Assembly (NCBI GenBank): GCA_905178155.1 | Contig: CAJINV010000003.1 | Location: 5,547,985-5,611,984 of the forward strand | Length of the DNA: 64,000 nucleotides | Direction: 5' to 3' | Origin: Amoebophrya sp. A120 | Taxonomy: Eukaryota > Protista > Dinoflagellata | In this document: piece by piece, positions 3,101-64,000 of the stretch | Position numbering within the stretch: position 1 is the first letter of the stretch | How the letters are laid out: the number at the start of each line of letters is the position of its first letter | Translations under genes and position numbers: made by a program | Notes under the pieces: generated by a model | Told to the model about the DNA's origin: nothing | Seen by the model: only the letters and a program-made list of their open reading frames with translations | The model's database searches: none

Positions 3101-5374
3101 AAAAGAAAATGCTTCTCATAGAGCTCCGCATGAGAAACTTTCTTGGCATGCAGAATTGCATGACAACTATGGACGAGTGGGGATGATTTTACACGGGATA
3201 CACCGTCTGCCTTATATATCCAGCCCCCGCCGTCACCATCCCCCCAATCCACGTAGAACCTTATCCCTATGGGAGTGTCAGGATCGACATCGACAAAGTC
3301 GAAAAATTTGTGATGCGTAAAATGTAGGGCACTCAAGGCCTGTATTGGGGAGCAGGCAAATGAGACCCATGGCAAGCCTGTGTAGGGCTATACAATATGC
3401 TGCCAGAATAGCATGGCAGGAGCAGTCTTCTTTGCCCAAACAGCATGACAGACTAGATTTGGGTGCTCCCGAAATTTCTCATGCGCCACTTGGAAACTGA
3501 GGCTCTAACTGGCGCCGGTTTTGTGCATCATTTTTCGATTTTGTCAATTTCGATTCTGACATTTCCATAATCCCGCCAGTGTTTGTATTGGCCATGTAGG
3601 TGTCCACGGGGACCGCCACTGGGTCACGCGTTTGGAAATCTATTAAAGTGAAAAATGCCCCCACCCCCGAACCTGGGAGCATTTGCATTGCAAACCTTTC
3701 CAAGTGAAACACTCGCCCTGTTGCATCTATCAGTATCACAGGTTATTTCCAATCGTAAATGGCAAAAATTTGCATTGCAAAAGACCCAAGCAAGAGTGGC
3801 GCTTGTCATGCAAGCGATGCGACATAAGCCTAGACTCTGGATCAGAAAGATTCATACTTCTTTCATGCGTGACAGTTTTCTTTTGGAAACTTCGCATCAC
3901 AAATCTTTGCGATTGCGACTTTGGGGGTGGGGGTATTTTTCACGGTAATAAACTCCATGATAAACTTACTCGTGACGTCACCGCAGCCAGAACCGTTTAC
4001 CACCGCGAACAGCAGGGACGGAATGAGAAATAAAGCGACAGTGCGTACTAAATGTATCAGACCACGTAGCCGCGTTCGAAGGGCCCCTGGGAGGACGTGA
4101 AGCTGCGCGAAGGCGGTAGATGTAACGTGTGAAAACGTCCCCGCCGCGAAACCAAGTTGGGAACTCTTGGCGTGCTGCAGCTGCACAAAATATAAAAATC
4201 CCCTTTTTGTAGAGTCCTCACGGGTTGCAAATTTCTATCTGCAGTGATGCACTTGCGCTGGTTGGCAAGGACAGCCGCATCGCCGAGACCACGCGTGCTC
4301 ATCCTCAACATCCCGTTTACAAGATTTACAAAAGGCGACTAGAAGAAAGGCCCCTGATAGAAATAAGCTCTGCCACTGCCTCTGGTGTCTCTGTGTCTGT
4401 CCCTGTCGGTGTCGACACAAAGAAATCTGCATGACAAAACTGGGGTGGGGAAAACTTTTACTCAGGATAGTGCACCTCGAACATTTACGCCGTGTTGCTG
4501 TCGACGCGGCGAGACAGAGCGGCGAAGGGTCCTCGTAGCACGTCCTTTTGCGATGAAGCCGCACCACTGGAAGATTGATGTCCGCAAAAATCCGACGAAA
4601 CAGAATTATGGCGCGGTGCAAGTAGACGAGTACTAGTACGTGCAACGAGGCCGCAACTCCAGATGAAAGCCAGGTTCGTACAGCCTGCAGCTGGATGTTG
4701 GAACAACAAAAAAGGCGATAGCGAACCTCGTCAGGAGCTAAAACGGTCGTCGAAGGCACCGATGCGGTGGCAGCCGAGTCGCGGTGCAAACAGGTGATTG
4801 CAATAATGCCACTATAATTGAGCAGACCACTCGTCTGCGGCTTCGGTAGAAGTGCTGTCCACGTTTTTACCAATCTGTGCCAACACACCACGTTGGCGCT
4901 CCTGCTCCTCCGCACGCACACTGCAACTCGACATATAATTCGACGGAGCTGTTCCACCTCCTGGTACAAATGGAGTGTACTGATCTCTCGCAGAGTGACG
5001 ACAAGGAGAAGCCCTCGTCTCGACGACGTCGAGGACTTCAGTAGCGACCCCGTCCTTTTGATCAGATCGATACTGTGGCCATCTCTTGCCGCGCAACGCC
5101 TCTTTTTCCGCCTTCCTGGTGTCATTCCGTAGTTATTTCCGGAACTAGAAGCACAATGGCGTAGCACCCTGTAGCAAGCTCTGTAGACGCAGCTGTGCCA
5201 ACGGAACCACAAAAAACGGCTAATCCTCAGTAAAGATAACGTCCCCACCCGCCCATAGTCAGGATGCCGATGCGAACTCCGCAACACAAAACTAGAATTC
5301 GAAAGTGTTGCGGTGCACCCACGGCGAACTTGAAATTGTAGCAAAGTGGTGGCTAGCGAGTCTAGACGGATCAC
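1..5374 (-). CDS. Multi-exon secreted/surface protein with VDWGDG motif, DUF285/BspA-like repeats, Cys-rich PAN/WSC-like segment and F5/8C (discoidin/F-lectin)-like motif; continues beyond window start; start codon uncertain
   Basis: ORFs 4235-5374, 3863-4186, 3479-3739, 3082-3375, 1088-2710 and 61-702 join in frame when five IR/DR introns are removed: ...CSRC|TAFAQ...VALFLIPSLLFAVVNG...IME|FQTRDP...NTGG|IRFYVDWGDG...ADG|DTQQEW...; STKDMFYGCRSL / TRSMFEGA / VTDMQSMF; FHTSQYDRAPW|YQVDFG. Confidence 0.7.
750..1141 (-). mobile_element. Non-canonical introner intron, TIR family B
   Basis: About 38-bp TIR (tatggaagcgtcaggtttgaaatcgacacagttgaaat / atttcaactttgtcgatttcaatcctgacactcccata); DR ccaag at 745-749 and 1142-1146; removing 397 nt gives APW|YQVDFG. 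Confidence 0.9.
2919..3200 (-). mobile_element. Non-canonical introner intron, TIR family C
   Basis: TIR tatcctgattaaaaacgtcccca / tggggatgattttacacgggata; DR caccg at 2914-2918 and 3201-3205; removing 287 nt gives an open frame into ORF 1088-2710. Confidence 0.85.
3268..3569 (-). mobile_element. Non-canonical introner intron, TIR family B (homologous to 750-1141)
   Basis: TIR tatgggagtgtcaggatcgacatcgacaaagtcgaaaaa / tttttcgattttgtcaatttcgattctgacatttccata; DR atccc at 3263-3267 and 3570-3574; internal similarity to 750-1141; gives TGG|IRFYVDWGDG. Confidence 0.9.
3641..3950 (-). mobile_element. Non-canonical introner intron, family C-like
   Basis: TIR tattaaagtgaaaaatgcccccacccc / ggggtgggggtatttttcacggtaata; imperfect DR aaatc/aactc; gives IME|FQTRDP. 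Confidence 0.8.
4121..4469 (-). mobile_element. Degenerate introner intron, family C
   Basis: tgtaacgtgtgaaaacgtcccc / ggggaaaacttttactcaggata; DR gtaga/gtgca; removing element+5 joins ORF 4235-5374 to ORF 3863-4186 in frame. Confidence 0.7.
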
Positions 5375-15400: not shown

Positions 15401-16799
15401 CCCTCCCGACCATTCCGGAGAGGAACTTCTGAGGCAGACGCGCAGATGAACAAGAGCCCCACGATCCACCTTCTTTGGTTACATACGCACTACACAGCCC
15501 GGCGAGCCCCCGCAAGACCACCTCGTCTTTCGGTGCTGCAAGCGCCACCACGCGACGAGCAGCCCTTCACGCTCTGTGGGATGCTTGGGCTCGTGTCCAT
15601 ACGTAGCGCACTTTTCTTTTAAGTAAATGCAAGTCATGCAATACAAATTCACCCTTCTGTACGCTAACGACCGTCCAAGGCGTAACCCCTTCTGGAATTG
15701 CGCCATGTAGTCCGCCCGGCCGCTGGGGTCCGCGATCGACGGCATGATTGGGGGGCTAACTACGTCAAGATCAACTTCTTGGGCGGCGCTGTCAGAAGAA
15801 CTCGACACCGGTCCTCCCCGTGGTCGTTCCACACCACGACCTGAGCGCACAGAGGGTTCTTGATCTGGTCGGCGCCTTGGTGAGAATACATGTTGCCCAC
15901 GCGGGCTCTCTTCCTCGTACAACCGCACACCGCCGGGCAAACCGGGGTCCAACGAAATACTCAGTCCGCGAGTCGTATCATTTTTGGGCGAAATCATGTA
16001 GACCAGTGGTGGTCCTCGAACAATGAAGTCTCTCCATGCTCCTGTCAAAATAAAAACTCCCCCCTCCCCATATCAAAACGGAGATTTGCGTAGCATGGTT
16101 ATCAAGTGAGTAGTCATGCTAGAAGGCAAAAGATGCAGACTGTCGTGCTGGATGGCGTCGGAAAGCCTTGCGTCTTGCTTCAGCGTGACAGGAGGCAACT
16201 CCACTGGAAGTGGGAAACAGCATGACCAATTGCCTGCAAAACAGGCCAAGACTGCGTCTCTTGTTGGCCTTCTAGCGAAGATACATACAAGTCGATTGGT
16301 GTAGTACGCAAAGAGAGCATCACAAATGTCCTTCTCGATATGGGTAGGGGGGATAATTTTTCTTTACAATACATGCCCGGCTTTCATCATGCCCCTGCTG
16401 CTGCGGCGACCGCGATGAGCAGCTCGCGGAGCTCTCCATACCGGGCGACGAACCCGGTGGTCCTGTGCTGGCGGCGCCGGGCGACGGATCAGCTCCGGGT
16501 GGTGACTCAGGACCTGAGTCGTGGTCAAAAAGGGGCCGCTTTCCTCCTTCTTCTGGATCTGGGATATTTGTGGTATAATTATTCGCTGTCCCTCCGTGAC
16601 AATCATTTGCCGGCAACGTCGGGGGTCGGGGCTCTTCTAAACTCGAGCTGTACATGCGCACAGCTCCGACCCGCCAAATGCAGCTGCATAATAGCGGAGT
16701 AATTCTCTTTCGGCAGAGCCACGACATCTTCGATCTTAGGGTTACAGACGGTGATGTAGAAGATGCTGTTTCGGATTCAACAAAAAAAATGCGTATCAA
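12411..16799 (-). CDS. Hypothetical multi-exon gene(s), possibly partly decayed
   Basis: ORFs 16320-16799 and 15479-16048 join across introner 16040-16371 (ESRA|WRDFIV); 15479-16048 and 14142-14792 share the duplicated ADPSGRADYMAQFQ; further minus ORFs at 13446-13703 and 12411-13409; no recognisable domain. Confidence 0.4.
13763..14159 (-). mobile_element. Possible degenerate introner
   Basis: IR tatcctacagaaataaactaca / tgtaattagtcttctgtaggatc; DR not conserved; ORF 14142-14792 terminates inside it. Confidence 0.45.
14464..15733. repeat. Segment bounded by an exact 44-bp direct repeat of coding sequence
   Basis: ttctggaattgcgccatgtagtccgcccggccgctggggtccgc at 14464-14507 and 15690-15733. 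Confidence 0.9.
16040..16371 (-). mobile_element. Non-canonical introner intron, family D
   Basis: Imperfect long TIR (aaaaactcccccctccccatatcaaaacggagatttg / caaatgtccttctcgatatgggtaggggggataattttt); perfect DR catgc at 16035-16039 and 16372-16376; restores frame. Confidence 0.8.
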
Positions 16800-19636: not shown

Positions 19637-19678
19637 GTCACTGAGAGTCACTGAGAGTCACTGAGAGTCACTGAGAGT
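19637..19678. repeat. 10-bp tandem repeat (gtcactgaga) x4
   Basis: Directly visible. Confidence 0.9.
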
Positions 19679-21485: not shown

Positions 21486-24400
21486 TCACCTGAAATTTAG
21501 GAGCGCCCAGCCGGCCGCGGCGACATACACGGCGCCAGCAGCTGCGGTGACCGCCTGCACCGTCGTTTGAGCCAGCGCTAGCGTTTCACACAGAAAAGGA
21601 CTACACCCATAGTACTTAAGTATCTCCATCCTTTGAAAAATGATTGTTGCAGCTTATCGCGCAGCACGCGCCACTCTGCCTTGCATGTTCCGCAAGATAA
21701 ACGTATTTGGTCAGTACACATCGCCACCTCGTAATGAGCTATCATCATCATCATCATCATCATGTAGTGGACACCCGCACCGAGCGCCACAGGTCAAGGA
21801 TCCCCTCTCCGGTGGGTGGGCGAGGAAGCACTTTCGGCCTGGGCCTGCAAGTTGCGTTTAGCATGACAAGGAAGTGCCGCCATAATCGCGGTTCTCCCAT
21901 TTTCTATACATAGATGAACATGAGGTACAATTTATATATATCGCAACAGAAATACACTTTTTTTGTTTATTCCTGGCATGGGTACGGGTACTTTTCTTTG
22001 GATATCGCGGATTTATGGTGGTGGTCGTGGTGGTGGTCGTGGTGATGATCGGCTCCGTGTCACATGCAAATATGTCTTGGTCTGGAAAGTCAAAGTTGGA
22101 ACTGGTGCTGGCAATGCTGGTTATATATTCCTCAGAAATTTGTATTGCATGAGACCAACAGAAGTCGCAGCCTCTGTTGTGATGCAAAGCCGCAGTTTCT
22201 AATGCGGACTGCGCATGAGAAAGCTTTCTACACACTTCTTTTCTTATGCTGGGCTGCATGCGAAAGTGTTTCAATCGTCCACAGTTCAGCATCACAAGTT
22301 TCCAGAGCCAGACACATTTGCACTGAATACTCCGGAACGATCTGCCCCACCTCAACGCCCGGCACCCCGGTCGCAGTGACGGCTGCGTTGTATGACAATG
22401 CCCAACTCCCGCCCCTCTGATGCCGGAACGGCAACACAAGCAACGGCAGAAATGGGCGTTCCGCGTGACGAACCTACATACGGACTGTAGTACTGTTTCA
22501 GGTTTCGAAATTTGTCATGCAAACAGTGCTTCAACGCAAGTGGTGGATTCGGTATTTATTTCCATCACAAAAAATGAGGGGGAGGGGGAGTTGTGCACCG
22601 TCATACATTGATGTCGTTTTTCAGAACCTCCGCACGATCGGCGCTCAGCCCTGTCTCGCTAGGCCAGAACGTTTCCAGAAGCGCAAAGTCGTCGACACTC
22701 CCGCGCAGAGCGAAGGCAAAGTTCAACGTGAGAAACATATTCTCTCGGCGCCCCCGTGTTGTTTGTTCCACAGCGCTGGAAGGGGCAACTACCCCCACCG
22801 CGTACTTTATGCACATGAAAAGAAACGCCTCCTGAAGAACAAGAAACGCCTTGGTGATATAAAGAATCTTGATCTTCATCCCAATAAGGTACACAGACTG
22901 GGCAACGACCGGAGCAGAAAAGCACATCAGACTGGTCCATCAGCAGCATGGGAGGAAAGTCGGAACAGGACCAATCAGGCAGTGTCGTGCAAATTCGAAC
23001 ATTTTTCTGCATGTGCCAGCAACACAAATCGAAATCCTTGATGCATAACAGCAAAAAAAAAATCCGTGTCGCGAAAAGGCAGCCACGCGGTCCTGCTTTG
23101 ATTCAACTACAGAGTCTGAGGCTGCAAAATGTGCCTTAGTCATTCAGAATCTCTCTCATGCAAGAGAGAGAGAGAGAGAGAGAGCGAGAGCAGGTCCGGT
23201 AGTTGGAATAAACTTTCCACTCCAGCAGGCACATTTCGCATGTCGGAGGGCGGGGCACTTTTCATTTCGATACGTTGCCTGCGGTCTCCTTTATTATGCG
23301 CGTCGAAGAGCTCGGGCAGCAGCAGCAAACCCGGTGGTGGAGTTGTTGTTGTGATGAGTTGCGCAGAAACGACGGACAGAACTGGATTCTCCAGGTCGGA
23401 AATGGTCAAATTGGAAAGCCCCGACTGCTGCAGGAATGCTAGCGTGCCGTCCGCCATGGAACTTAGCAGGTCCGGGTCTTGCACCAGTTCCGTTTGGTCG
23501 ACGGTGTCGCTCACGGTCAAAATTTCCACGAATTGCCGCGGCGCGAGCCCTGGAGTCGTGGTCGTGGTCGTTGTCGTCGTGTCTTCCGCGCACCCCACAA
23601 AGTCTACCTCGGCCCCCGCGTCCGGGCAGAACAGGCGCGGGGCTTCGCCAGTGTACTGGGTCGTGTTGCACACTCTATCCCACAGAAAAAAGCAGGCAGG
23701 GTATATTGGTATTGGTATTGGTATTTGTAATGCAACAATAAACACACAGAAAGTTGTAGATCTGCCATGGGCGGCACCATAGCATTCTGTTTCGGATGAC
23801 CATGCGTGTATTCATGATTTTCATTTTTCTTTTTGCATATACGAGTATGACCTGCCTGCTTTTTTCTGTGCGATACACTGCACCCACTACCGCGAGCGCG
23901 TCCGAGCCGTTCATCGGCGGCAGCATACTATCGCTGGCCAGGAGCTGCTTCCAGTCCACACCTTCCACGTCGAGCCGGTCGCTTAGATACGAGTCCCCCC
24001 CGGGTTCCGTGCACCCCTGCTGGCAACACCCCAACAGGCAGCTCGCCGTTGGAAAACTGCCGTTTGCTAGCGCTTCGGCTTCCGAAAGGGCGATGCAGTA
24101 AGTATCCGGAAGTCTGCTGATATAGTACGCGTGGTCTGTCTGGTTCGGGGTGGGGCAGGTCACGCCCGCACATGTCGGGTAGCAGCTTTGCTCGCCACGG
24201 GAAGGCCAGCCGGACCGCAGTCGATAGTTGGCGTCGCAGCTTTTGCAGTATTCCGCTTCGTGCGCAACGCAAAACCCGGAGGTCTCCAGCTCGCCGTTGT
24301 GGCAAACGCACACGGTGGTCGTCGTCGTAGTTGTCGTCGTGGTCGTGTTCTCACCACACCCGACAAACTCCACCGCACTTCCGGCGGCGGGGCAAAAAAA

Positions 24401-27400
24401 CCGCGGCGGGTCTCCCGTATACTTCGTTTCATTGCAAACGGCCCCCGCGAAGGCCAGGGCCGCGCCCTCGTTCATGGGCGGCAGCATGGCATCGGCGGCA
24501 AGCATCTGCGTCCAATTCACTGAGGTCGTGTCCACCCTCCTGCGCAGGTTCGAGTCACCGGCTGGCTCGGTGCAGCCCTGCTGGCAACATCCGGAAAGGC
24601 ACCCGCTTTCCGGATAGGTCCCCTCGGCGAGCGCAGCTGCCTCCGGCAGCCCCAGGCAGTAGGTATCGCCCAACCGGCTGATGTAGTACGCTTTGTCAGT
24701 GATATTCGGGGTCGGGCACGTGACGCCGCTGCAGACCGGATAACAACTCTCTTCCCCCCGAGAGGGCCAGCCGCTCCGGAGGCGATAATGTTCGTCACAA
24801 CTCTTGCAGTATTCGGCCTCGTGCCCAACACAAAACCCCAAAGTCTCAAGCTCGCCATTGTGGCAGACACAAACGGTGGTGGTGGTCGTTGTGGTGGTAG
24901 TCGTGGTATTGTCAGCGCACCCAACAAATTGGATCTGGCCCCCGGCGGCAGGACAAAAAAACCGCGGCGGGTCACCAGTGAACTGCGCCCCGTCACAGAC
25001 AGCCCCTGCAAAGGCGATCGCGTTGCCGCTGGAGACAGGAGGAAGCATTGCGTCACTAGCTAGCGTCTGAGTCCAGTTTACTGCCGCAGTATCCACCCTG
25101 TGATATAAAAAAAAGTCGTTTTTTCGCAACCAAAAACTAGTACTCTGTTTGTCAGCATCAGTTTTAAGGCATTTCAAGCAGATTTACTTCACCATCCAAG
25201 TCAAGGCCAAAAAAAAAGACTCAAAGCACTCACATACCTCTTTTCCAGCTCTGAGTCCGCAGCAGGCTCAGTGCACCCTTGCTGGCAGCAGCCGGCAAGA
25301 CAGCTGGCCTCTGGAAAAACGCCTTCCTGCAGAGCTTCTGATTGGGAAAGGCCAATGCAGTAGGTGTCACCCAGCCTGCTTATGTAGTATGCGCTGTCCG
25401 TGAGGTTTGGCGTCGGACAAGTAACTCCCTCGCAAATGGGATGGCATCCATGTTCACCGGTCTCGGGCCAGTCCATTCGCAGGCGATAATGTTCGTCGCA
25501 ACTCTTGCAGTATTCCGCCTCGTGCCCAACACAGAACCCCGAAGTCTCAAGCTCGCCATTGTGGCAGACACAAACGGTGGTAGTAGTCGTTGTGGTGGTA
25601 GAGGTAGTCGTGGTATCGTCAGCGCACCCAACAAATTGGATCTGGCCCCCGGCGGCAGGACAAAAAAACCGCGGCGAATCACCAGTGAACTGCGCCCCGT
25701 CACAGACAGCCCCTGCAAAGGCGATCGCGTTGCCGCTGGAGACAGGAGGAAGCATTGCGTCACTAGCTAGCGTCTGAGTCCAGTTTACTGCCGCAGTATC
25801 CACCCTGTGATATAAAAAAAAGTCGCTTTTTCGCAACCAAAAACTAGTATTCTGTTTGTCAGCATCAGGTTTAAGGCATTTCAAGCAGATTTACTTCACC
25901 ATCCAAGTCAAGGCCAAAAAAAAGACTCAAAGCACTCACATACCTCTTTTCCAGCTCTGAGTCCGCAGCAGGCTTAGTGCACCCTTGCTGGCAGCAGCCG
26001 GCAAGACAGCTGGCCTCTGGAAAAACGCCTTCCTGCAGAGCTTCTGATTGGGAAAGGCCAATGCAGTAGGTGTCACCCAGCCTGCTTATGTAGTATGCGC
26101 TGTCCGTGAGGTTTGGCGTTGGACAAGTAACTCCCTCGCATATGGGATGGCATCCATGTTCACCGGTCTCGGGCCAGTCCATTCGCAGGCGATAACTCTC
26201 GTCACAACTCTTGCAGTATTCCGCCTCGTGCCCAACACAGAACCCCGAAGTCTCAAGCTCCCCATTGTGGCAGACACAAACGGTGGTGGTGGTCGTTGTG
26301 GTGGAAGTCGTGGTATTGTCAGCGCACCCAACAAATTGGATCTGGCCCCCGGCGGCAGGACAAAAAAACCGCGGCGGGTCACCAGTGAACTGCGCCCCGT
26401 CACAGACAGCCCCTGCAAAGGCGATCGCGTTGCCGCTGGAGACAGGGGGAAGCATTGCGTCACTAGCTAGCGTCTGAGTCCAGTTTACTGCCGCAGTATC
26501 CACCCTGTGATATAAAAAAAAGTCGCTTTTTCGCAACCAAAAACTAGTATTCTGTTTGTCAGCATCAGTTTTAAGGCATTTCAAGCAGATTTACTTCACC
26601 ATCCAAGTCAAGGCCAAAAAAAAAGACTCAAAGCACTCACATACCTCTTTTCCAGCTCTGAGTCCGCAGCAGGCTCAGTGCACCCTTGCTGGCAGCAGCC
26701 GGCAAAACAGCTGGCCTCCGGAAAAACGCCTTCCTGCAGAGCTTCTGCCTGGGAAAGGCCAATGCAGTAGGTGTCACCCAGCCTGCTTATGTAGTATGCG
26801 CTGTCCGTGAGGTTTGGCGTCGGACAAGTAACTCCCTCGCAAATGGGATGGCATCCATGTTCACCGGTCTCGGGCCAGTCCATTCGCAGGCGATAATGTT
26901 CGTCACAACTCTTGCAGTACTCCGCCTCGTGCCCAACACAGAACCCCGAAGTCTCAAGCTCGCCATTGTGGCAGACACAAACGGTTGTAGTCGTAGTGGT
27001 CGCATCGCGCAAAAATACTGCATGGTCACCATATACTATTTACAGTGCCTTTTTCTGTTACGTCTCTATTCGTCGGCTTTCCGCCTCCGTGGCGTCGTTT
27101 GAGCAAACACCTCGCATGCCAGACCAAATTCGCTTCCAAAATGCGTATGCAAAAGAAACGAAGACCTTCTATACACACTCTACAAAAAAACATTACACAA
27201 TGCCAATGCGTCCCTCTGCATTTCAAGAAGATCACGGTGACACTAGCGATTTTTCTTTTTGCGGATAGGTTGTAGTTGTCGTGGTGTTTTCCGCACATCC
27301 AACAAATAACACCTCGCTCCCCGCCGTTGGGTATCATGACAAAAGCTATTCTCTTCTCGAACTTTCAATGGAGTATTTGGAATTTCCCACGTCAAATGCT

Positions 27401-30400
27401 TATTTGCGTCCGGACGAAGCCAAACATTTTAAGTGCGATTCGAAATCGACGCAAGGGCAAGTCAGACCGCGGTTTTCACTGCGTGGTACCTACTTGCTCC
27501 ACGTATGAATGAGAATACGCTTTCAAGACGCAAACTCCTTCATCTCCATAAGGGGCAATAAAACTTCGGAGTGTGGAATCAGAATGACACAAGTGAGTCG
27601 CATTATTTTCTTTACAACTTCGCTTACGACTTAGCACCACACTTCGTAGACGTTGCTAATCGTCGCACGAAAATGCCCACGAACTTTCATGTGACGGCAC
27701 AAAAATTAAAACTCGGTGCAAATTAATGCATCTTCATGCAAATTAAGTTGCGACCGTAGTGAGCTCCTTTCACTTTACACACAGAGCGACTCGGCCAATT
27801 CGCGATGAGCCAGAGCAAAAGAAAATGTGTGTGCAGGAGCTTAATTGCGATTCATTGTGACGAATGTTCTCGTGTGATATGGAACGCTTCCCGTGTACTG
27901 CGTATCATTGCAGACGGCTCCAGCGAAAGGGATTGCTTCGTCGACGTGCCATTAACACGAAAACTACTGTCGCTCAGCTTTAGTTTTGAAGATGCACAAT
28001 TATAAGCATAGATGATACAAATTGAGCATGAGAAGGCGTCTTGCGTCTGCGACTGTAAAAGAAAGACTTCATCGTCAACAAGCTAGAAATAGGATGTGAC
28101 ATCAGTAGCAAAGTGGATACTTACGCAGAAAGCAGCTACGTACTCACACGCGACTCCTGTATTAAACTCCTTTACAAGCAAGTGACATTCTGCCAAATGG
28201 AAGCCGTCACGGTTACTATTCTGGCTGCAGCGCCAATCATTCAAATCATGCAAGTCCGCATTTTTGAAAGCACCAGGTGAGAAAGCGTCAATGTGCTGGT
28301 AGAATGACGAGCGCACGCTTCTTAGTTGTGCCATGTGCATAGTACATTACTCATCTTCAAGCATTTGATGCACAGCCGCGGGGCATCTGCGACTGGGAGC
28401 AAGAGGAAAAACCTTATCAGGACTGCTGCGACACCTGGCGTTTCCACCTTGTGCTTTTCGCAAAGCCACCAGCAGTTTTCGTTTATTGCTTTCCTCTCTA
28501 CTTCATAAAGCCATGGGTGGAAGCATACTGTCGCCCGTGAGAAGCTGGTGCCAGCTGAGTCCCGAAACATCCACTCGTTTTCGAAGATCGGATTGTGCGT
28601 CCGGTTCTTTGCACCCCTGGCGGCAGCATCCCGCTCGGCAGCCGGCTACCGGAAACTATCAAATGTAAAAATGTCTGGGTCTGGAAACTTGTGATGCTGG
28701 GTGGCGTCTCATGATGAGGCCAGAAATGCTGGCTCAGCATCACAAGTTTCTGAGCTTCTAGGTGTTGCCTATTCTGCATGACAAACTGCGTTTCTGCATC
28801 ACAGAAAAATGGAGCTCTTGGGTAACTTGCATGACAGATTTAAGAGTCATGCCAGACAAGCATGACAAACATGCATTCTTCCAGACCCAGACATTTTTAC
28901 ATTTGATAGAAACACGCCGGGCGCAAGAGCGTCGGCAGCGGAAATGCTCATGCAGTACGTATCCTCTAGTCTGCATCCAGAGTAAAAACGTCCCCACCTG
29001 ATAGTCATGTCAGATTCGCATACACAAGCCAAAAAAATTCTGGCTGTGTGCTGCGCATGACATAGTACACAGACTGTGCTAAAACTGCGGCAAAACTTCG
29101 CGCGCCAGATGGTTCATTGTGCAAGAAGACTTTCCTATGGGTCTGTGGTGTAGTCATGGTTTTGGTTATTCTTATTTCGTGCAATCAAGTTCCTTCTATA
29201 TCTTGTTTCAAGCAGCATAACAAATTCTCAGATATTGACATCGGCGAGCGCTTCGCATGGAGTCCTCCTCTTCCCGCATGAGGAACAATTTGCATTTGGT
29301 TTTGGGCACGGCACTTTAGTCGTAGATCCAGACTTGCATGACAAAAAATATTGGGTGAGGGCGTCGTTTTATTTACACAGGATATTCTGCTCACATAGTA
29401 AGACCCATCCGAGGGATCCGGTGCGAGGCAGGTCGCCCCCCCGCACGTGGGGAAGCAGCTTTTCTGCCCGTCAGCTGGCCAATTCTCCCGGAGGCGATAG
29501 TTGTCGTGGCAGCTGCTACAGTATTCCGCGAGCTGCCCTGGGCAGGTGCCCGTGCTCTCCAGATCCCCGTTGTGGCAGATGCAGACCGTGGTACTGGTAG
29601 TGGTGCTCGTGGATGTGGTGGTGGACGTCGTTGTGGTGCTCATACACGTTCCAACAAGCTGTTTCTGTTGTGGTTTCTATTTTTCTCAAAATGCCGCGCC
29701 GGCCTCTGAAACGCACTCGCAGAAAGCCGCCCCCGCCCCGTTCGATCAATACTAGCAACCGCGTCCACGACCTTCTCGATAGTGTAGTTGCAGCTGAAGA
29801 TGTCTGTACAAATACATGTACATCTCTCGGAACCTACAAAACCGCAAGCGGTGGCCCAGTTCGTTCGGAGAAATTCGGTTGGGTTGATCTTGTTGAGGGG
29901 TTGCGGAAAGCAGGGGTTGCGGGATCATAGGGTAGGGCGGGCTACTTGAGAGGCGGGCAGCTTGCGAGCGGTGGTTCGTGTGAGGGCCAGCTGTGAGAGA
30001 TCGGTGGCTGCGAGCAGGCCGGTCGCTCCCGAACGCCGCGCCTGCGGAATAGATCTGGCAGCAACAAACATTTGACGGCGGCGGCGATTTTTTTTTAGGC
30101 GTACTATGGCTCGCAGTGGACTTTGAAATTGTAAAAAGATAAAGAACATCAAGGGTGCATTTTGAAAAAGCGAGAACGCCTGCTACAGAAACAGATTTTT
30201 GGACGCTCATAGTCGTGCTCGTGGACGTCGTTGTCGTTGTGCTCGTCACGGCCTCGTCGCATCCGAGGAACTGTACCTCGCTCCCCGCCGCCGGACAGAA
30301 GAACTTGGGCGCGTCGCCGTGCCACACCGTTTCATTGCACACCGCACCCGAAAACGTCATCGCCCCGTTGCTGCTCATGGGCGGCACCATGTCCTGCTTT

Positions 30401-48326: not shown

Positions 48327-49232
48327 TCACTTGCTCGTACTTTTCTCCTCGTTTTTGCCGTACCGAGCAGCGCGCTTCTGTTTCAGGTGGATCAGTTTGT
48401 CGGTGAGCTCGGCCATGCGCGACCGGTCGTCGTGCCACTTTCGGTACGTGACCAGCATTCGCTCCTTCAAATACGGGTTCTGGTTGTTACCTTTAGTGTG
48501 TGTTGGTAACTCATCAAATTCGTGCTAGTACATATTCTCAATATTTGAAAACTGCAACTAGCTGCCACAGCACGCAGTCACTATCTTTGTGCCTATAGAA
48601 GAAACTGCAACAGGGGGAGGCACGCAATAGCAAGAAACAACTGTGAGAACACTATAAATACAGTAGGTGTTGAACGCCCCTTCCGGCCAGAACTGAGTTT
48701 TGTCTTCGGCGTTCGGTGGTAGTTTCATGCCATAGAGCTGCTCGATCTGCTCGTGATGCACTTCGTTGAACGCCGGCTGGCACTTTTCGACCCGCAGAAA
48801 AAACGAGTTGTCCTTCCGCATCACGCCCAGTGGGATGCCTTGCTCCGCAGTGAAGGTGATGAGCTTATGCAGATGAAAAAAGGCCATAGTAATGCTGCGA
48901 GTGCTGCACTGCTTCAAATTGCAAACCGGTACGATCTCTCTACGTTTCTTATTCTTTTTCTTTCCATTCTCAGACACATTAATTGATGCCTCTCCCTGGT
49001 CGTGGTCCTCTCTCCTAGGCGGAAATGAGGAAGAATGCCAAAGACAATGGTGCAACTACTGGCTCTGGGCCCGGCTGTGCCGTTGTGCTAAAAAAATGCA
49101 GTCGATTGTTGCATGCAGCAAATTCATCTTGCAGGACCCGCAGCTGTCTATAACTTTTTTATCCCATGATAACTTCCGAGCGCCATCTTCAGGGACTTCG
49201 GTCCTACAGTTGGGCACGGGTCTGCTCGCCAT
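48327..49232 (-). CDS. Hypothetical multi-exon protein
   Basis: Coding-like segments MASRPVPNCRTEVPEDG..., ITFTAEQGIPLGVMRKDNSFF...AFNTYC and EFDELPTH...NPYLKERMLVTYRKWHDDRSRMAEL; junctions unresolved. Confidence 0.5.
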
Positions 49233-49277
49233 TCCTTTGTGTAGGTTTTTGTTTTCTTTTTTTTGGAAACTGATGAG

Positions 49278-49804
49278 TGTTAGTGGACTTGAGAACACTC
49301 GCACACACTTACACACGCTTGCTCCACTGTGCTCGTTATCAACAGCAATTCGATGAATTCTCTCAATTGCAAGTAAGCAAGCAAGTGACGCAAGTCTCTT
49401 GCTGCGTTACATCCTGTAGGTTCAATTCATCCAAATTCATCACATTCATATGGACCAATCGGGTCCAGAGTCAAGTGGCAAAACAGCATGGGAGTCCACT
49501 CCTCAACCTGCTCAGATTGGTGCTCGACCCTGGCGGGAGTCAAGTCCCCCAGGGTGACCACTCTGAACGTCTGGACCGAGCTGAGTCCATTCATTTCACT
49601 ACGATCCTGATGGCTTTGCCTTCGTAGTATTTGGGGGATTCGCGGAACATGGTGAAGAGTTTCCTTTAGGATCTAGATAGATTCTGACCATTTCCCTAAG
49701 GATCTAGCTAGTTCAGGTCATTCAGAGCTGTCATTTCATTGGGAACAGGCGTCATTTGGGGCGATCGTGTTACGTGTGTGCGGGATCGATTTCCATGACC
49801 AACA
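49278..49804 (-). repeat. 3' LTR (527 bp)
   Basis: Direct repeat of 54942-55462; by eye about 13 substitutions and 2 indels. Confidence 0.97.
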
Positions 49805-49897
49805 CCCCTCCTCAATCGCTGCGGCGGTGGTGCTAATCTGGATAGCGTCCTACCACACTCCCCTCCTGAGCGCGCTGTGGTGAACTAGCTATCCCCT

Positions 49898-54882: not shown

Positions 54883-54941
54883 TATTTCAAATAAACTTAT
54901 CTGACTAGAAGAGCCAGTTTGAGTCTCAAGGCGTAGCGTAG

Positions 54942-55462
54942 TGTTAGTGGACTTGAGAACACTCGCACACACTTACACACGTTTGCTCCACTGTGCTCGT
55001 TATCAACAGCATTTCTATGAATTCTCTCAATTGCAAGTAAGCAAGCAAGTGACGCAAGTCTCTTGCTGCGTTTCATCCTGTAGGTTCAATTCATCCAAAT
55101 TCATCACATTCATATGGACCAATCGGGTTCAGAGTCAAGTAGCCAAAACAGCATGGGAGTCCACTCCTCAACCTGCTCAGATTGGTGCTCGACCCTGGCG
55201 GGAGTCAAGTCCCCCAGGGTGACCATTCTGAACGTCTGGACCGAGCTGAGTCCATTCATTTCACTACGATCCTGACGGCTTTGCCTTCGTAGTATTTGGG
55301 GGATTCGCGGAACATGGTGAAGAGATTCCTTTAGGATCTAGATAGATTCTGACCATTTCCCTAAGGATCTAGATAGTTCAGGCTATTCAGATCTGTCATT
55401 TCATTGGGAACAGGCGTCATTTGGGGCGATCGTGTGTGCGGGATCGATTTCCATGACCAACA
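54942..55462 (-). repeat. 5' LTR (521 bp)
   Basis: Direct repeat of 49278-49804. Confidence 0.97.
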
Positions 55463-55552
55463 ATGAGAAAAATAGTCTTTTGGGAGCATTGCTATAGAAG
55501 TACTTATGTGCTTTTCCAATTCATTTCGCTGAAATCTACTACCGCGATATAT

Positions 55553-57470
55553 TTATATACCAGATTTCCATTCGGAAATCGATCGTCGTCCACTTCCGGT
55601 TCCGTGTAGTAACCGTAATATTCGTCGGTTAGTATGGAAAAAGGCATTCATTCCACCACGTATCACGCCCAGGCAACGACAGATCATTTTCGATGCGTCT
55701 TTCTTGTACGAAATATCCTTTTTGTAGGCGATGATAATTGCTCTGATCGCAGCCAAAAACCACAACATTGTGTGTGGCTCTAAGTTTTTGAGTAGCACAA
55801 CTTGATACTGCCTCCACTCATCAATGCACGACACGGAGCATGCTGTACAAAGCTTCTTTGGGTGTGGTGGTGGTGTGCTTTTCTCCTGTCGTAGCTGAAC
55901 TGCTGTCACTGTACACGGGGTCACTGGAGTATCAACTGCAAGCACGTCTGGGTCTAGAAATAAGTTGTGACGCTAAATAGATGAATGAAAATCTGACTCC
56001 CGTGCGCACCCACGCATAAGAAATTTCTGAGTCGTTTCGTAGTGCGTAAGCGTAACCGCAACCCTCATGAGTGCATGACAAAGAGGCAGCGCTTTTCAAT
56101 AACGCACCACAAAGTAAAAGCTCAGGGGCATCGGCATGTTGCGGCTTCAGCATTAAAATCTGGCAACTTGAACTTTCCCGACCCAGTCGTGATTGCAACG
56201 CATATGTAGACTGTGGTTGACATCTCGTAGCTTGGCTGCCGGTAAGCGTCATGCTCCGGATAGCTGTAGACGGGCGGGTTTGAATTTTCCTGCTTCGATT
56301 CTCCTGCGAATGCGCTGCGACCACAACGAGATTCGATCCAACATTTGGAAAAGGTGTGGATTGCGCAATCTCGGCTTTCATCTCAGTACGGACTTTCGTA
56401 ATCTTTATCTTACTTGTTGGACAATCGCGTCCTCATGGTCTCATGCTGATCACATAAGTATAAAGAAAAATGCTTCTAGTACCCATGATGCTGGTAAAAA
56501 TGGTGCGGCCCCACGCCGGACGACGATGAGGACGAAGTAGTATGGTAGGAAAAAGCCTTTCACAAGCAATATGCTGCGCATGCGTTCGGTTTTTCTTTTT
56601 TTGCATCAGAAAAGAACTTCTCTGCATGCAAATCAATGCCTGATGCAGAACCCTTAAAGCTGTACGTGAAAGAATTATACTTATGGGAATCGCCAGGCAA
56701 TTCGCCTTCTGTTCCCAGCATCTATACAGTTGTCCTAAAAATTTGTAAGAACAAAGGCATCTTGTCGTGTGAGAAATTTTTCCTCTGCAGTACGCACTGG
56801 GATGAAAGTAGTAGTCTTTTGCGTCCCGGGTCGGTCTGCTTGATCGTCTCTTTCCGTTCCCGTTGCCGCCCTCGAACTGATCGGAGCTATGCCGAGCAAA
56901 ATTGAAGCCTCTCAGGTAGTTGTATCCTTTCTCCAGCACGTTTTGGTGATACAAACGCGGCACCATGTGTGCTTACGGAAAGAGAAAAGTGCATGGATAC
57001 TGTGACACTAACTAGCCAGAGCCTTGGCTTTGGTCGTGCTGTTCCTGTGGATAGTAGCTTGGGTTTGTGTAGTTGTTGTGATGGTACGGTATCTGCTGCA
57101 GCTGCTCTGGGTGGCTGTAGGGCCGAGTCTTCGCCACGTTACCTGAGTTCAAAATTCCAACATTGACTTTCAATCGCTTCTGATGCACGCAGATGTTGTA
57201 CCTATGCACAGCAGTATGAGAAGTGCCGCTTGGCTCCGCGAAACTAGCAAAAATGCCTGAGTGAATATAATAGATACCCTTGCGCTTCTGCAAGCACGGC
57301 ACGCGAAACATTGTCCCAAGAGAGTCTGGCGGTGGGTCCCAGTTTTGCGTGGCCAGATCAACGAAATCAAATTGCAAAACTTCGTTGACAGTCACCGAGC
57401 GGATAGCTTCCTCTTTTGGACCGTGACCGTTCTCCTTCTCCTGCAGTACAAGAAACGCATGAAAAAAACC
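55553..57470 (-). CDS. Possible hypothetical multi-exon gene
   Basis: Chain of minus ORFs; one junction restored by introner 55930-56204 (QPQST|VTPCTV); no domain recognised. Confidence 0.35.
55930..56204 (-). mobile_element. Degenerate introner, family A
   Basis: tatcaactgcaagcacgtctgggtctagaaa / tttcccgacccagtcgtgattgcaacgcata; DR tggag/tgtag; in-frame join. Confidence 0.7.
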
Positions 57471-59144
57471 AACAGCAAAGACGAATAGTCGATCAAAAGA
57501 TTTTGTACACTTGTGGTCAGTGAGAGTGAGTACTGGCTAGTTATCAATTTTGAATTTTGTACAGTCGTAAAACAAGAACGATTTTTATCCAAATGAAAAT
57601 TTCAACGCGTGCTACAAAAAGTCAATGCTACAAAAAAAGATACAGGTTTCAGTGACCATCCACTTCTGTTGCACAACAACATTCGCTTCAAAAAACACCC
57701 TACAAAAATTTCAGAGTAGGAAACGACATGGTTGGAAAATCAGACTCGAAATCACGAAAGTCAAATAACCCGTGGAATTATTTTCGGATACGCGGCGCGT
57801 AGGAATGAAATGAAATCGCCTCAAATGCTTGCACGTCAGAATATGACGAAAACCCTGACAACGATACTTTTATTTTCACGAGAGTGACGACCACGACATG
57901 CGATTTCTTCTTATTGCGATTCGCAAAAGGGAAATGGAATGATCCAAATTCACGCGAAAATTGATGCGTCACAACGAATTGCGCACCCTGCGACGACAAG
58001 AAGCAAGTTCTACCTGCGCGACAAAAGCGCTGTGAAAAATATTACATCTTGCATCCGTGTACGACCCAACAAAGACTGGAATTCTAAGCTTGCATTCACA
58101 GTGGCAGGACCGTATTTGCAAATAGCAGAAACGCATCGCGACGCTTGTCTTTCATCGGAATGAGAGGCATCAAAGACAATCACGATCGACTACATGTCCC
58201 TAGGTTGATCGATGCTTCAGATCTACGTGCTTCTGCATTGAACCTGAGTTATATCCATCGACATGCTTCTTCTCGTCTTTTTGATATTATAATGAAGTCC
58301 GAAAAAGACCTGAAAGATCGAAGGCATGAACACCTTACATGACCGTACTTAGTTGCCTTTTCTGTTTGCGCGTACTCCTCGTCTGCAAGAATCAGACACG
58401 ACACGCTTGCTCTTTTCTGTGAGTGTGAGTAGAAACTGCGATCCCACCTTCTGCTTCGACGTAATAAAGCTCCAAGGTACTATTTGCGTTTGAAATGCCA
58501 GCTGGTTCGATTTCCCGCGGGGAGTCCCACCACCGCCTTCTTCTACCGCACGACATCTCCCCCAGGTAGCGGGCCAACTGCGACTGAATGTTGTAAGGAA
58601 ACCAATCAGTACCACTACCAAACCAAAACCATCATATCAAACTGAAGAAAGTCAAAGAAGAATAAAATTTTACACGGTTATCCCGAGGTTGTAGGTAAAA
58701 CTGAAGCTATTGATGAAAAGACTCCTTTCATTCTGCTACCCGCTAATTGGGCAGACTGATTAAGTTGTTGACATAGTGCAAGTTCTTGACGCGAAAACTC
58801 ATGAGTATCTGATTGTAAATAGGAATTTGCGGAAACCAATATGTAAGCCAGGAAATTACTTGTGTTTGTAATTGCGCAAGATATTTCTCGTGGTCATATC
58901 GAAAGTGGATGGCTCTTTCAGGATCAGGTCAAGTAGAAGTTCATCTCGCTGTTATTTTCGTAAGCATTTATTTGACTTTTGTGCTCGCTGTAAGAGTAAG
59001 TTTCGTTGAATTCAGAATGTAATAAGCAAGGTTTGTCTAATATTCAGATTCAGTTTCGTACTTTGGATTTATTGCTTTCTTTGATATGAAAATCAAAGCC
59101 ACAGATACAGTTTCATTTTTGATGGTGCAGCCAGTGCTTCCTCT

Positions 59145-62100
59145 TCACACGTCGAGAGATGTGAGCATGGCGCAGCCGCGCTTGACCCAATGCTTGGCCT
59201 CGTGCGTCTCTTGAATGGGCACGCGCATAGGCGTATGCATTGCAACTATCTCCGGGTCTCGAAACTTGGCATGCTAGTTTGTGAAAGGTGGGCGCACTGC
59301 AATGGATGCGTAGCCGAGCACGACAAGTTTTTGACCTCCAATGTGTTTCGTTTCCCGAATGGAAAACTGCGTTCTTGTATGACATTCCACAGGCTTTCTT
59401 TCTGGTTATGCATCACAGAGTTAAAAATCTGCTGTGAAATGCATGACAAACTTCCACTCTTCCAGACCCAAACATGTTTGCAATGCATAAGGCATGACGA
59501 AGTTGGTACTGTGACCGGTTGTCGACAGGACGCCTCTGCGGGTGCTGATCTTGTAGACCGGACAAGAGTAAAAGCGGAACTCGTGCAGCTCGTCCTTTTT
59601 GCAGGGCGTGATGTGCACCATCGGCACGGACGTGAACAGCACTTTAGGCTCCGATTCCGCCAGCGCCCACTCGTCCCAGTCCCATCTCGCTCCCTCCAGG
59701 AATAGCCCATATGTATACACGCCGTCGGCTGTAAGTGTTGCCAGACAGAGCATTAGCGCAGTTCAATCATCTGTCTGTCTTTGTGCGTAGACAATTGAAA
59801 ATGAAATGGACACTGGCGTTGGCATCACAAGTCAAAGCAACATCAGAAAAACACAATTTCTCATGGAAAAGTTCATGCAATGTTCATCTGTACTTAAATT
59901 CATGTGCTCCTACCTCGTGAAGAAGTAAAAATCATATAAAATTACCAGGTGGCTTCGTTGGTTTTTGCTCCTTTGGGTAGTAGAAATCGAAGATCAGGGT
60001 GTCGATGGGGATTGTGTATTTTCGAGCAAAGTTCTGCGACGCGCCGGTGGTGAAAGCCTGCGTGAAGAAAATGCCGGAGATCCAGAAGAGCGCCGGCTTC
60101 CCGCGGTCGATCCAGTTCTGGTAGAATTTGAGGCGCTCGAGGAGGTCGCTCACGTACCCTCCCAGCGGCTTCAGCGAGGGATACGAGGACGCGAGCCACA
60201 TCACCGGCGTCTTCCCATCGAACATGTTGAAGAACGCCTCCTCCAGCTGCGCGCTGAGCAGCGCCAGACCCTTCAGCGCTTTCAGAATCTCCTTCAGGGA
60301 CTCCCGAATCACGTTGGTCAACTTGTTGTACCTGGTCACCTCCTGGAACAGGACCGTGTTCATACTTTCCTCGTACATGACCGGGTACTTCTCCTGGACG
60401 GCCGGGATGTTCCACGGCTTCGGCAACCGTGCCAAAATGTCGTTGGCCACCTCCCGCACCAAGTCCTCCGGACCCGCGCCGCCGCCCCCAGAGGCCTGTC
60501 CGACGGTCTTCAGCAGATCAGACATCATCTGATACGTTTCCCCTTGCTCCTTGGTCAAATTCGCGTTCTCGTGGAACCCAAATACGCCCGGTGGTGTCAC
60601 TGGTGTTGAGAGTACAATGTGATTTTCATTTTTCGAAGTAAGTCTGCAGCGAAAAACGCGCACAAGTGGCTACGCTCTGTTATACAGAGGTCGGAAATCA
60701 AAGTGCTAGAGACGCGCTGTGCAAGTTTCCTTATGGAGGTTATGCACAGAAACCACATAAGCAACAGCGAGCGAGAACCAACTGAGAGAGTGCTTTCATC
60801 TATTATACTTGCGGAATATTTTAGCAAGGCAGTTATGTCTGCTTGTGCGAGAATCAAATAAAGTATCTACCCAATGGCAAAGACTTGATGTGTGCCAGTA
60901 CACCGTCAAACTCCTCGTCTTCTGTCAGTGGGTACAGGGGCTCACCGGCCATGCGGTACTCCCCATCAAAGATGGTTTCGTCAAAGTAGTCCCGTAAAAG
61001 GGTCATGATCAGAATTCGATCATTCCCGTCGGTAACCCTGCCCCCGTAGTTGCACTCGCCCGTCATGTAGGTTATTGCCTAGATACAGGAGTGTTTTAGT
61101 CTTTTTCAGCAACATGGAACGTGATGCAGATTCTGATTCGTCATTTGCTTTTTACAAAATTGATGACTTAAGACGCAGCGACAAGTACAAACAACAATGA
61201 ATACGCTGTCTCAATAAATAAGCCCTTGCTACTTACAAGTACAAATAACATAATAAACGGAGAAAAATCAGAATGCATTGTGTGTACCTTGAACGGCATC
61301 TTCTCTTGTTCGTCTATGAACATCTTGAGCTGCATGACTGAGATGCGCAAGTCGTTTTCTGTAAATTCGTAGGGAATGTTCCATCCGAGAGGGCCGAAAA
61401 GTTTCCGCTCCTGATCCATATCCTGCGAAAAAGTGTACTAGTAGTTGCTGCAAGTGGATTACTATGAGTATCTATGACATACCAGGACCCTAATCGGACC
61501 GTACCACCAGTAGAAACCCTGGCCCTGCAACATGCAAACCTAAGCCTGACGTGTATTCTGGTATGGCCAGCTCACGGTCACGACCACAGCGCCCTGGATA
61601 AATATACCGTCGCCTCTTGGAAGTAGAGAGACAAGAACTCTACTCCGAGCGGAGGACTCCTAGTACCACTGACTAGTACGACTCTTTTTACTCGACTTAG
61701 ATGACTGCGTGGAAGAAGCAGAGACCGTAGAGCAGGCGCTTGAATTCCCGAGGTTTCTTGCACCCGTCAAAGAAGTCCGGATCTGAGATCGGGTTCATGA
61801 GGTACGACCCGGTGAGGTTGGATCGCAGTCCCTTGGGTGCTTCGTTCGTCATTTTCAGCCCGTTCTGCAAGATTGCCACCGGGAACTGGTTTGATGGGTA
61901 CGAGGTGAGCCACAACCGGTATTCCTTGTGCAGCTTCCGCGCGTCCTGCTGGTCCAGCATCTTATCCAGTTTGGGCATCCAACTGGTGGCCAAGTGGCAG
62001 TTCTGCAGCAACACCCAGCCGCCGTCCTTCTTTCCGTCCGCCATCAGCTTCTCGGCCTTGGGCCCCTGCCCCTGCCCCAGCGAGATCGCCTGGATCTCCT

Positions 62101-64000
62101 TGCCCTTCTCCAGCGCAAACTTGTCCAGTGCCGCTTTCGGGTCACTGCCGGGCGACAGCACAAACACCAGCGGAATGCCGTTGCTGCTGTCCGCGAAACT
62201 CCCGGCCAAGTCAAAGGGCGGCGGGTTCACGAAATCCTCGCCCAGCTTGCCGGCGACGTACAGCATAATCGCGGGCACGAGCCGATCTGGCCGGAAGGCG
62301 CGCAGAAACATCAGCTCCTCAAAGTCGTCAAACCCCTCCAGGGTTTTTGGCGCGAGCGCACGCAATTTCTGTCGTATCATTGATATTGTGTTGACGTTGA
62401 CACACAGACACTGTCGCTCAAAATTGCGAACGAGATACGATTCTTCGATGAAAAATCATCGATGCGTTCTTGAATCTTGATACGAGGGCTCCGTGCGATT
62501 GAAATAGATCGATGCTGAATGATGCACAATGAATTATATACTATTTCCAGCTGTGCTATAAAGGAACGGAGACGGAAAAAATGTTGAAACATGAAAGGAG
62601 ATACATTTAATGGATCTGTATCGTCGTAGGCTTGTTTCATCAGTTCCAGCTCCTCGGTAAACTTCGTGTCGACGCCTTCAAATTTCTCTGCAACCTTTCC
62701 CAGCTTGAAGACCTCTGCCCAAGTTCTCACAGGAATCCAAGATGCCGGCATCTCAGGCGGCTGCTCCATACTCACGCCGCCGGTCAACAGATATCGATAG
62801 TTTGACATGTCTATTATGCCATCCGCCAAAAACAGTCGTGCGCACAGAAGGAACGAAAACAGCAACTTGTGCCTGTAAAAATTATCGACCAAGTCCATCA
62901 TGCGCAGCTTGAAGATTGCAAGCACCCCAGATAGCTTTAGCTACACCCTCGAGGACATCTTCGCACAGCACTGACTAACACTCATCTTCAGTAACGTGGA
63001 TGCAGCAACTTCTACGCACCACGACCACCCGGCCTACTATTAATTATAGCTTCCAATGAACAATAGTTCGAAGCTGGTACTACAACGACTACTGCTATTA
63101 GCTTACCTTTCAAACAGACTGCGGCAAATGTTGCGGTAGAGGTTGAGGCGAAAGAAGTCGTTGATGTTGAAGATGTATGCATTGCAAATATGTCTGGGTC
63201 TGGAAGTTTGGAACTTGTAATGCTAGCCTTCCATATCTAGGAAATCTGTATTGCATAACCAACAAAAGTCGCAGCCTCTTTTGTACATGCAGCAAACACG
63301 CAGTTTCTCATGCGGATTGCCTATGAGAAAGCGTTCTGGAGGAAAGTTGTCATGCTAAATTGCAGTCGGAACTGTTTCCATCATCCACATTTTAGCATCA
63401 CAGGTTTCCAGACCCAGACATATTTTCATTTGATAAGATGCGCTGGTCCAGCTCCGAGGCTTTTTCGGCGCGCTCGATGGAGTTGAGGAACAAAGCCGTG
63501 TAGAAGGGCAGGGAGTACTGGTACATGGGATCGATGTTCGCCAAGTCCTGGATACAGAAGAACATCACGCTGGCTTTGAAGGCCACCGGCACGTAGGTCA
63601 CGCGCGCCTCGTCGATCTTGATCTCCGTGGCGGCGCCCACCTCCTGCTTGGCGGCGATGTCGTTGGCGATCACCTTGGACTCCTTCAGAATGTTGATGGC
63701 GGACTCGTCCTCCAGAATGTTGCCCTGGGACTCCGACAACACGCGCAGGATCTCGTTCTCGCAGTCCTCCAGCGCTTTCTTGTTCGCCGCGCCCTCCAGC
63801 ACCAGTTTTTCCTTTTCCTCCGCCAGGTCGGGCCGCTCCTCCTTCACCACGAAGTTGAGAATCTGGTCCTGCAGCCCCACCAGCGTGATCATGAAGTTCA
63901 GCAGCGTCACCTTCACGGCCACGTCAGGGAGGTAGTGCGGATTCCGCAGCTTCGTGGTCATGTAGAAGAAAAAGTCCTTGGAGTACTCGATAATGGACTC
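59145..64000 (-). CDS. Axonemal (inner-arm type) dynein heavy chain, 3' part (AAA5-AAA6-C-terminal domain); 5' part outside window
   Basis: MTTKLRNPHYLP, IDPMYQYSL, CRSLFERHKLLFSF, LSPGSDP, SLGQGQGP, WVLLQNCHL, QERKLFGPLGWNIPYEF, NYGGRVTD, GLFLEGARW, GHSTNFV, HWVKRG; GT-AG introns 62873-63106, 62369-62604, 61079-61287, 60600-60870, 59729-59945 plus three non-canonical introns. Confidence 0.96.
59234..59489 (-). mobile_element. Non-canonical introner intron, family A, in dynein
   Basis: tatgcattgcaactatctccgggtctcgaa / ttccagacccaaacatgtttgcaatgcata; DR aggcg/aggca; gives HSTNFVMP|MRVPIQETHEAKHWVKRG. Confidence 0.93.
61419..61699 (-). other. Non-canonical intron (decayed introner) in dynein
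   Basis: Subterminal IR aaaaagtgtactagt / actagtacgactcttttt; element+5 removal gives the conserved FFHAVI|QERK. Confidence 0.7.
63176..63435 (-). mobile_element. Non-canonical introner intron, family A, in dynein
   Basis: TIR aaatatgtctgggtctggaa; DR agatg at 63171-63175 and 63436-63440; removing 265 nt gives DQRI|FNINDFFRLNLYRNICRSLFE. Confidence 0.95.

Follow-up and report, generated by a model that had tools for sequence, protein, structure and literature searches.

A fixed splice register and strand-specific selection on U+2/A+3 in the hairpin introns of Amoebophrya sp. A120

Hairpin introns of Amoebophrya sp. A120 share a single splice register, consisting of one base, TA, a hairpin, ATA and four bases, in all eight cases supported by transcripts. 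Selection on U+2/A+3 is strand-specific among the genomic elements, whose +1 base and 3′ dinucleotide are free. Non-canonical introns make up about two-thirds of the parasite's total, and their removal has been an open question since 2021 because their borders looked patternless. The rule N-TA...ATA-NNNN, together with strand-specific selection at +2/+3, narrows that question to two mechanisms. The exact border it defines can be used in gene finding, and it accounts for the spread of a transposon through genes that nevertheless stay intact.

Non-canonical introner introns of strains A120 and A25 were described by Farhat et al. 2021 (PMC7789003). The A120 repeats described there consist of TAT, seven variable bases and an A run, carry short direct repeats (3-5 nt) at their borders and form repeated families; N-T donors head the A120 list of Table S4. 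The repeat motif of the DNA studied here matches that description, so its introns are of a known kind and the question is their splice code. In section 10 and the Fig. 3 legend of that paper there is no clear terminal signature, and the cut is given as variable or unknown relative to the hairpin.

Spliced introns of the window

The window is a stretch of 64,000 nt (contig CAJINV010000003.1, positions 5,547,985 to 5,611,984 of the forward strand), whose own coordinates we use below. It is rich in elements of 170-570 nt with terminal inverted repeats. The top named match of its JmjC protein is from Amoebophrya sp. A25 (36% identity over 97%). An Rfam search of the 64 kb gave no match and no snRNA, and the element motif had no match in viral_contigs. 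Other repeats in the window include 15-nt tandem repeats and inverted GC-rich repeats with a 70% GC island at 6790-9400, a region that differs from the rest; about 40 nt of apparent coding sequence in two copies 1.2 kb apart, in a minus-strand frame (14465-14505 and 15693-15733); and, in gene-poor 17900-20660, several copies of the short motif ACATTGCTCCAT...GGCGGTCGCCAGCA together with palindromic 91-nt tandem units, with no Rfam match.

Splice joints were taken from transcript contigs of runs X1 and X3, which represent one sample and whose RNA status is presumed; that they skip GT-AG introns supports an RNA origin. The transcript evidence is confined to 44001-64000, one-third of the window. 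These contigs yielded 21 joints, and our counts rest on the 15 that are shown, of which eight can be slid to GT-AG and seven cannot. Contig piece lengths, which sum to the expected 331 nt, imply two further introns, 62873-63106 (GT-AG) and 63172-63436 (non-canonical). Raw-read runs X8 and X9 (8 and 1 reads placed) gave no joints.

The focal intron belongs to a minus-strand gene for a dynein heavy chain, recognized by PF03028 and PF18199 in the flanking exons. Its features, in gene order, are as follows.

61701..62368, minus strand: upstream dynein exon, Dynein_heavy D6 P-loop, PF03028 (transcript contigs and domain match)
61704..61705, minus strand: unused GT (GTC), 5 nt upstream of the true donor
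61415..61700, minus strand: focal non-canonical intron, 286 nt, C-TAAGT...ATA-TGGA (transcript joint 61414/61701)
61698..61700, minus strand: N-U-A donor (C+1, U+2, A+3), with the element arm starting at +2 (transcript joint)
61423..61424, minus strand: AG that follows a pyrimidine run (TTTTTCGCAG) and is not used, 8 nt inside the true 3′ end
61415..61421, minus strand: far-end ATA (-7 to -5) and the 4-nt spacer TGGA before the 3′ cut (transcript joint)
61287..61414, minus strand: downstream dynein exon (transcript contigs)

Joint 61414/61701 has no sliding ambiguity. The intron reads CTAAGT...GATATGGA, the start that an earlier note on this DNA had assigned to it, and its termini are CT...GA, with neither G+1 nor a terminal AG. 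The spliced frame across the joint is H-A-V-I-Q-E-R. Splicing passes over two AGs, one lying 8 nt inside the 3′ end and the other 4 nt outside it; either would be in-frame. A canonical intron GTC...CAG, made from the GT at 61704-61705 and the AG at 61423-61424, would be in frame too, yet it is absent from the contigs shown; contigs drop rare variants, so minor use of these skipped sites is possible. The focal intron is old. Its 5-bp duplication is intact at only 1/5 sites, its arms have decayed, the start now being TAA and the far end TAT, and it has no significant copy among the 171 loci described below; other elements of the window belong to families of up to 167 copies. Its predicted fold is modest (z=-1.74), with the ends pairing into a stem and the outermost pairs left out of it.

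Seven more hairpin introns are supported by transcripts.

63172..63436, minus strand: T-TAT...ATA-CATC, perfect 5-bp duplication (contig piece lengths)
59230..59490, minus strand: T-TAT...ATA-CGCC (transcript joint)
56884..57054, minus strand: C-TAT...ATA-GCTC (transcript joint)
56537..56793, minus strand: old intron G-TAC...ATA-CTAC (GT-AC), end-to-end pairing not predicted (transcript joint)
55926..56205, minus strand: A-TAT...ATA-CTCC (transcript joint)
55629..55894, minus strand: old, C-TAC...ATA-CTAA (transcript joint)
48862..49172, minus strand: old, T-TAT...ATA-AGCT, unambiguous joint, duplication 0/5 (transcript joint)

The earlier note had proposed that the 5-bp duplication is split 4+1, so that the intron starts N-T-A. 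No other register accommodates the seven non-canonical joints found in the 15 shown (of 21), and a non-slidable joint forces this one in two introns, 48862-49172 and 61415-61700. U+2/A+3 is present in 8/8 hairpin introns. TAT follows the +1 base in only 5/8 (TAC in 2/8, TAA in the focal one). The +1 bases are T, C, A, G, C, T, C and T, so G occurs in 1/8; a terminal AG occurs in none, and the next exon starts with a purine in 1/8. ATA stands at -7 to -5 in every one of the eight, old introns included. Their duplications are mismatched at 18/40 sites (45%), four introns being nearly randomized, and despite this not one of the 24 far ATA sites has changed (rough p=0.001).

The nine hairpin-less spliced introns of the same genes are all GTA...AG. 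These canonical U2-type introns have U+2/A+3 (9/9), as the hairpin introns do, but G+1 and AG are retained in them, ATA is absent from -7 to -5 (0/9 against 8/8) and most have no end pairing. End-to-end pairing is predicted in 7/8 non-canonical introns (7.8-20.9 pairs) and in 2/8 canonical ones (6.2 and 11.9 pairs). Spliced introns come as two discrete classes, eight with ATA at -7 to -5 and nine GTA...AG without it. The resemblance of CTAAGT to GTAAGT, which had been offered as a sign of a donor changed only at +1, is weak beyond +2/+3: G+5 is found in 1/9 canonical donors, and because the organism's own donors depart from GTAAGT beyond +3 the argument adds little. A 6.3-kb GT-AG intron at 49234-55559 (minus strand), spliced in transcript contigs, contains an LTR retrotransposon with 96% identical repeats (~49276-49804 and 54940-55462) and an RVT_2 domain.

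End decay in genomic elements

A scan with the inner-repeat motif omitting its first ten bases gave 171 loci spanning 274 kb, all of them on contigs of one accession prefix from 11/64 parts of the collection, possibly of a strain other than the window's. Element detection ignored the first three bases and used arm pairing with duplication, or a profile of positions 4-28. The strand of each element was called by a codon model applied to the flanks only. This model is right for 14/15 spliced introns, and for 13/13 at a score difference of at least 3, all of them on the minus strand and with the model partly seeded on those exons. Left out of the count were the window elements, 26/270 profile pairs with a duplication of at most 2/5, and pairing hits with TAT at neither end; the left-out pairs were regarded as out of register, and they include non-TA starts at both ends. 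We kept 244 elements, 204 of them oriented. The duplication is perfect in 205/244, as detection partly required.

TA was lost at no gene-sense start and at ten far ends of the 204 oriented elements (p=0.002), U+2/A+3 being present in 204/204, and at one start against 11 far ends in the full 244 (p=0.006). The sole start-side exception (L028:985-1251) has A+3 changed to G and begins G-T-G, a canonical donor; it is weakly oriented, its strand is backed by its neighbours and a long frame, and it would be a GT-AC intron. The earlier note had cautioned that its own ends were partly located by looking for TAT; the TAT-blind count is still asymmetric. Splicing selection on the 5′ end, which it had claimed, stands for U+2/A+3 in gene sense and stops there, since the third base decays alike (5 starts, 3 far ends of 204), as does the inner repeat at positions 11-30 (47 vs 49 elements). 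An apparently stronger conservation of the far inner repeat, from summed changes of 117 vs 68, vanished when counted per element. The end asymmetry is real and confined to +2/+3.

Far TA sites change at 10/408, about the background rate in these young elements, whose duplications are mismatched at 4.0% per site pair. The far-end changes fall at A-5 in seven, U-6 in three and A-7 in three (13/204 DNA elements in total), and those at U-6 break the pair with A+3. A general drift of the far end, as once proposed, does not hold: far ATA is intact in 8/8 spliced introns, and the third base and inner repeat are symmetric. With 24/24 far sites kept in spliced introns, the far end appears to tolerate single changes when young and is kept over time.

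That drift had been read from far-end triplets at eight positions of the window. In the DNA the triplet is present at seven of them, with a partner arm starting TAT and a duplication of 3/5-5/5; at 27950 no partner arm with a matching duplication was found. The seven elements are known from DNA only.

4121..4469, minus strand: near TAT, far ACA
16040..16371, minus strand by long open frame: near TAT, far GGA, duplication 5/5
21584..22004, minus strand: near TAT, far AAA
22058..22329, minus strand: near TAT, far ACA, duplication 5/5
27003..27267, minus strand: near TAT, far ATG
28974..29384, minus strand from surrounding gene: near TAT, far ATG
29641..30211, minus strand from surrounding gene: near TAT, far ATG, duplication 3/5

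The strand of the 16040 element is in conflict, minus by an open frame of 148+186 codons and plus by the codon model. A register error was suspected for it, and its 5/5 duplication speaks against one. A further element, 10581-10841, has TAT at both ends and flanks that match as a 4-bp repeat instead of 5. The region 21400-34500 (minus strand) is a large multi-exon gene with many elements, encoding Cys-rich repeats split by Thr runs, and it contains near-identical tandem blocks with a period of 615 nt at 31-34 kb and ~700 nt at 25-27 kb. Its product resembles a surface protein.

The asymmetry could also stem from mutation biased by strand, from miscalled strands or from ascertainment, in place of splicing selection. 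The counts are small (0 vs 10), A-5 to G makes up 6/8 first-position far changes among the 244, which is what an A>G bias linked to transcription would produce, and the codon model has the wrong sign for 1/15 spliced introns and probably for the 16040 element as well. However, detection was blind to the first three bases and orientation came from flanks only. The same bias should hit A+3 at the start (0/204) more than far U-6 (3/204), position 3 and positions 11-30 are symmetric, and miscalled strands would weaken an asymmetry instead of producing one. We hold this origin to be very improbable. Selection on U+2/A+3 is strand-specific.

The elements show no constraint on the +1 base or the 3′ dinucleotide. 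In the register taken from the spliced set, G+1 occurs in 72/204 against a background of 30% (p=0.11), AG ends in 19/204 against 14.3 expected (p=0.21), and 122/204 have neither. An excess of 3′ AG in a smaller set (17/140, p=0.019) was not upheld in these 204. The earlier note's literal model had a spliceosome relaxed at +1 for all introns, with AG dispensable and the far end unconstrained. Such freedom in the elements agrees with it, as do young far ends changing at about the background rate; but G+1 and AG are kept in 9/9 hairpin-less introns, ATA is kept in 8/8 spliced hairpin introns with the 3′ cut at a fixed distance, and at intron positions common to A25 and A120 98.6% of sites are canonical (PMC7789003 section 12). 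A global relaxation is thus improbable. What stands of the model is relaxation tied to the elements.

The main family lies in genes both ways round (54 vs 69), which places the signals in the repeats. Pairs GG and CA are in excess at +1/-1 (46 vs 28.7), with a matching excess (33 vs 22.9) at the duplication's other end; a preference for isosteric +1/-1 pairs was set aside on this ground, and a target-site preference may explain the excess. The duplications in the 171 loci are mildly palindromic, with GG/CA enriched at the end and CC/TG at the start, which suggests a transposase target bias.

Possible route of removal

We give an even chance to removal of the hairpin introns by the ordinary U2-type spliceosome, which would find the donor by U+2/A+3 while the hairpin bypasses the checks on G+1 and AG. 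A TAT-ended non-autonomous transposon would insert with a 5-bp duplication. The last duplicated base would become +1 and the element's TA would become +2/+3, giving a donor whichever way round the element lies, and its excision with one duplication copy would restore the mRNA in both cases. The 3′ cut would be measured from the stem end or ATA, a predicted stem would join the intron ends, and the catalyst would be the spliceosome.

The U2 spliceosome is favoured because the two invariant letters are the same as in canonical donors, and because +2/+3 are constrained where their pairing partners are not. Since the paired far positions change at about the background rate, +2/+3 appear to be read as sequence and not merely as base pairs. 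Strain A25 argues the same way. Its repeats start TTA and its listed non-canonical donors are TT (PMC7789003 section 11, Table S4), from which we infer that it would reach the same U+2/A+3 in a different register. Bypass of the in-frame GTC...CAG pair in the focal intron is also counted for a hairpin-led spliceosome, and contact of +1 with -1 in the spliceosome (bioRxiv 10.1101/2025.08.15.670264) offers a basis for releasing both together. In PMC7789003 (section 10, Table S6) U1 proteins, U2AF, Prp8, U2, U4 and U6 were found, as was U5 in A120; U1 snRNA was not.

Several observations weigh against a hairpin-led spliceosome: neither G+1 nor AG nor isosteric +1/-1 pairs are clearly preferred, the search for a branch point gave none, one spliced intron has no predicted stem, and the fold of the focal intron is only modest. 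An A at -5 or -7 was considered as an obligatory branch point, and neither is invariant (7 and 3 of 204 changed); with no invariant far-end adenosine, no branch point can be named. The outermost pairs (+2:-5) are not predicted in 5/8 spliced hairpin introns, the focal one included, and ATA is still kept, so recognition of ATA may depend on its sequence in addition to structure. We also considered that a far ATG keeps a U-G wobble pair. No other change is as common as ATG, but ACA, AGA and ATC, which break the pair, are seen too, and the point is not decisive.

A wider form of the spliceosomal reading is held more tentatively, at somewhat short of an even chance. Here the donor code would have shrunk to U+2/A+3, and the hairpin would switch off the G+1/G-1 and AG checks and fix the acceptor at a distance of four bases from the hairpin's end. 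Every TAT-ended transposon would then be a ready-made intron in either orientation and at any site, and A120 (N-TA) and A25 (T-TA) would use the same code through different transposons and registers. Should lariats be found, the case would be one of a natural spliceosome dispensing with both terminal checks in response to RNA structure.

Comparison with known introns

The window elements are like the Amoebophrya introners of PMC7789003 in TAT, seven variable bases and an A run, in border repeats, non-GT-AG borders and, outside the focal intron, family copies. They differ from that account, with its variable cut, in a fixed register (1 and 4 nt) and in strand-specific selection at +2/+3. PMC11282704, PMC12130899, PMC11453091, PMC12787238 and the other literature searched describe the introns and the missing U1 snRNA, and in what was searched of them we did not find the fixed register or the strand asymmetry; logos in PMC7789003 (Fig. 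3, Figs S19-S25) may show part of it. New here, as far as we found in print, is a specific splice code for a known and unexplained intron class.

The nonconventional introns of Euglena (PMC12501133) are alike in their non-GT-AG borders, paired ends, fixed-spacer motifs, canonical introns alongside and borders slidable through direct repeats. The Euglena motifs are N3-CAG...CTG-N5 (CAG at +4, CTG at -8), against N1-TA...ATA-N4 here (TA at +2, ATA at -7). Fixed spacers on paired ends are matched here by 1 and 4 nt in 8/8, with pairing predicted in 7/8. Our clean two-class split and fixed spacer resemble Euglena, where a distinct machinery has been proposed, so a second machinery of that sort might read the hairpin with the code N1-TA...ATA-N4 and cut at fixed spacers, the match to U+2/A+3 being a coincidence or due to a shared protein. 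The discrete classes (8 vs 9 introns), the far ATA kept at every site beside 45% mismatched duplications, spacers comparable to those in PMC12501133 sections 7 and 8, and the lack of a branch signal and of a U1 snRNA in PMC7789003 all speak for it. However, Euglena needs both motifs, and single changes in either block splicing, whereas the far motif here, intact in 8/8 spliced introns, is changed in 13/204 DNA elements within apparent coding frames. The two invariant letters are exactly those common to canonical donors, and the Euglena preference for a purine at the start of the next exon is absent (1/8). We consider a second machinery less likely than the spliceosome, yet probable enough to stand as its main rival.

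A spliceosomal route, the reading we prefer, has a parallel in Fritillaria borealis, whose non-canonical introns are spliced by a modified U2 spliceosome with altered recognition (PMC11282704; bioRxiv 10.1101/2025.08.15.670264). There, as here, introns derive from MITEs with inverted repeats and duplications and have varied terminal dinucleotides. In F. borealis donors are mainly AG, ends are AC or AT and U2AF is duplicated, while in the Amoebophrya hairpin introns the host's duplicated sequence supplies both +1 and the final four bases, which are unconstrained.
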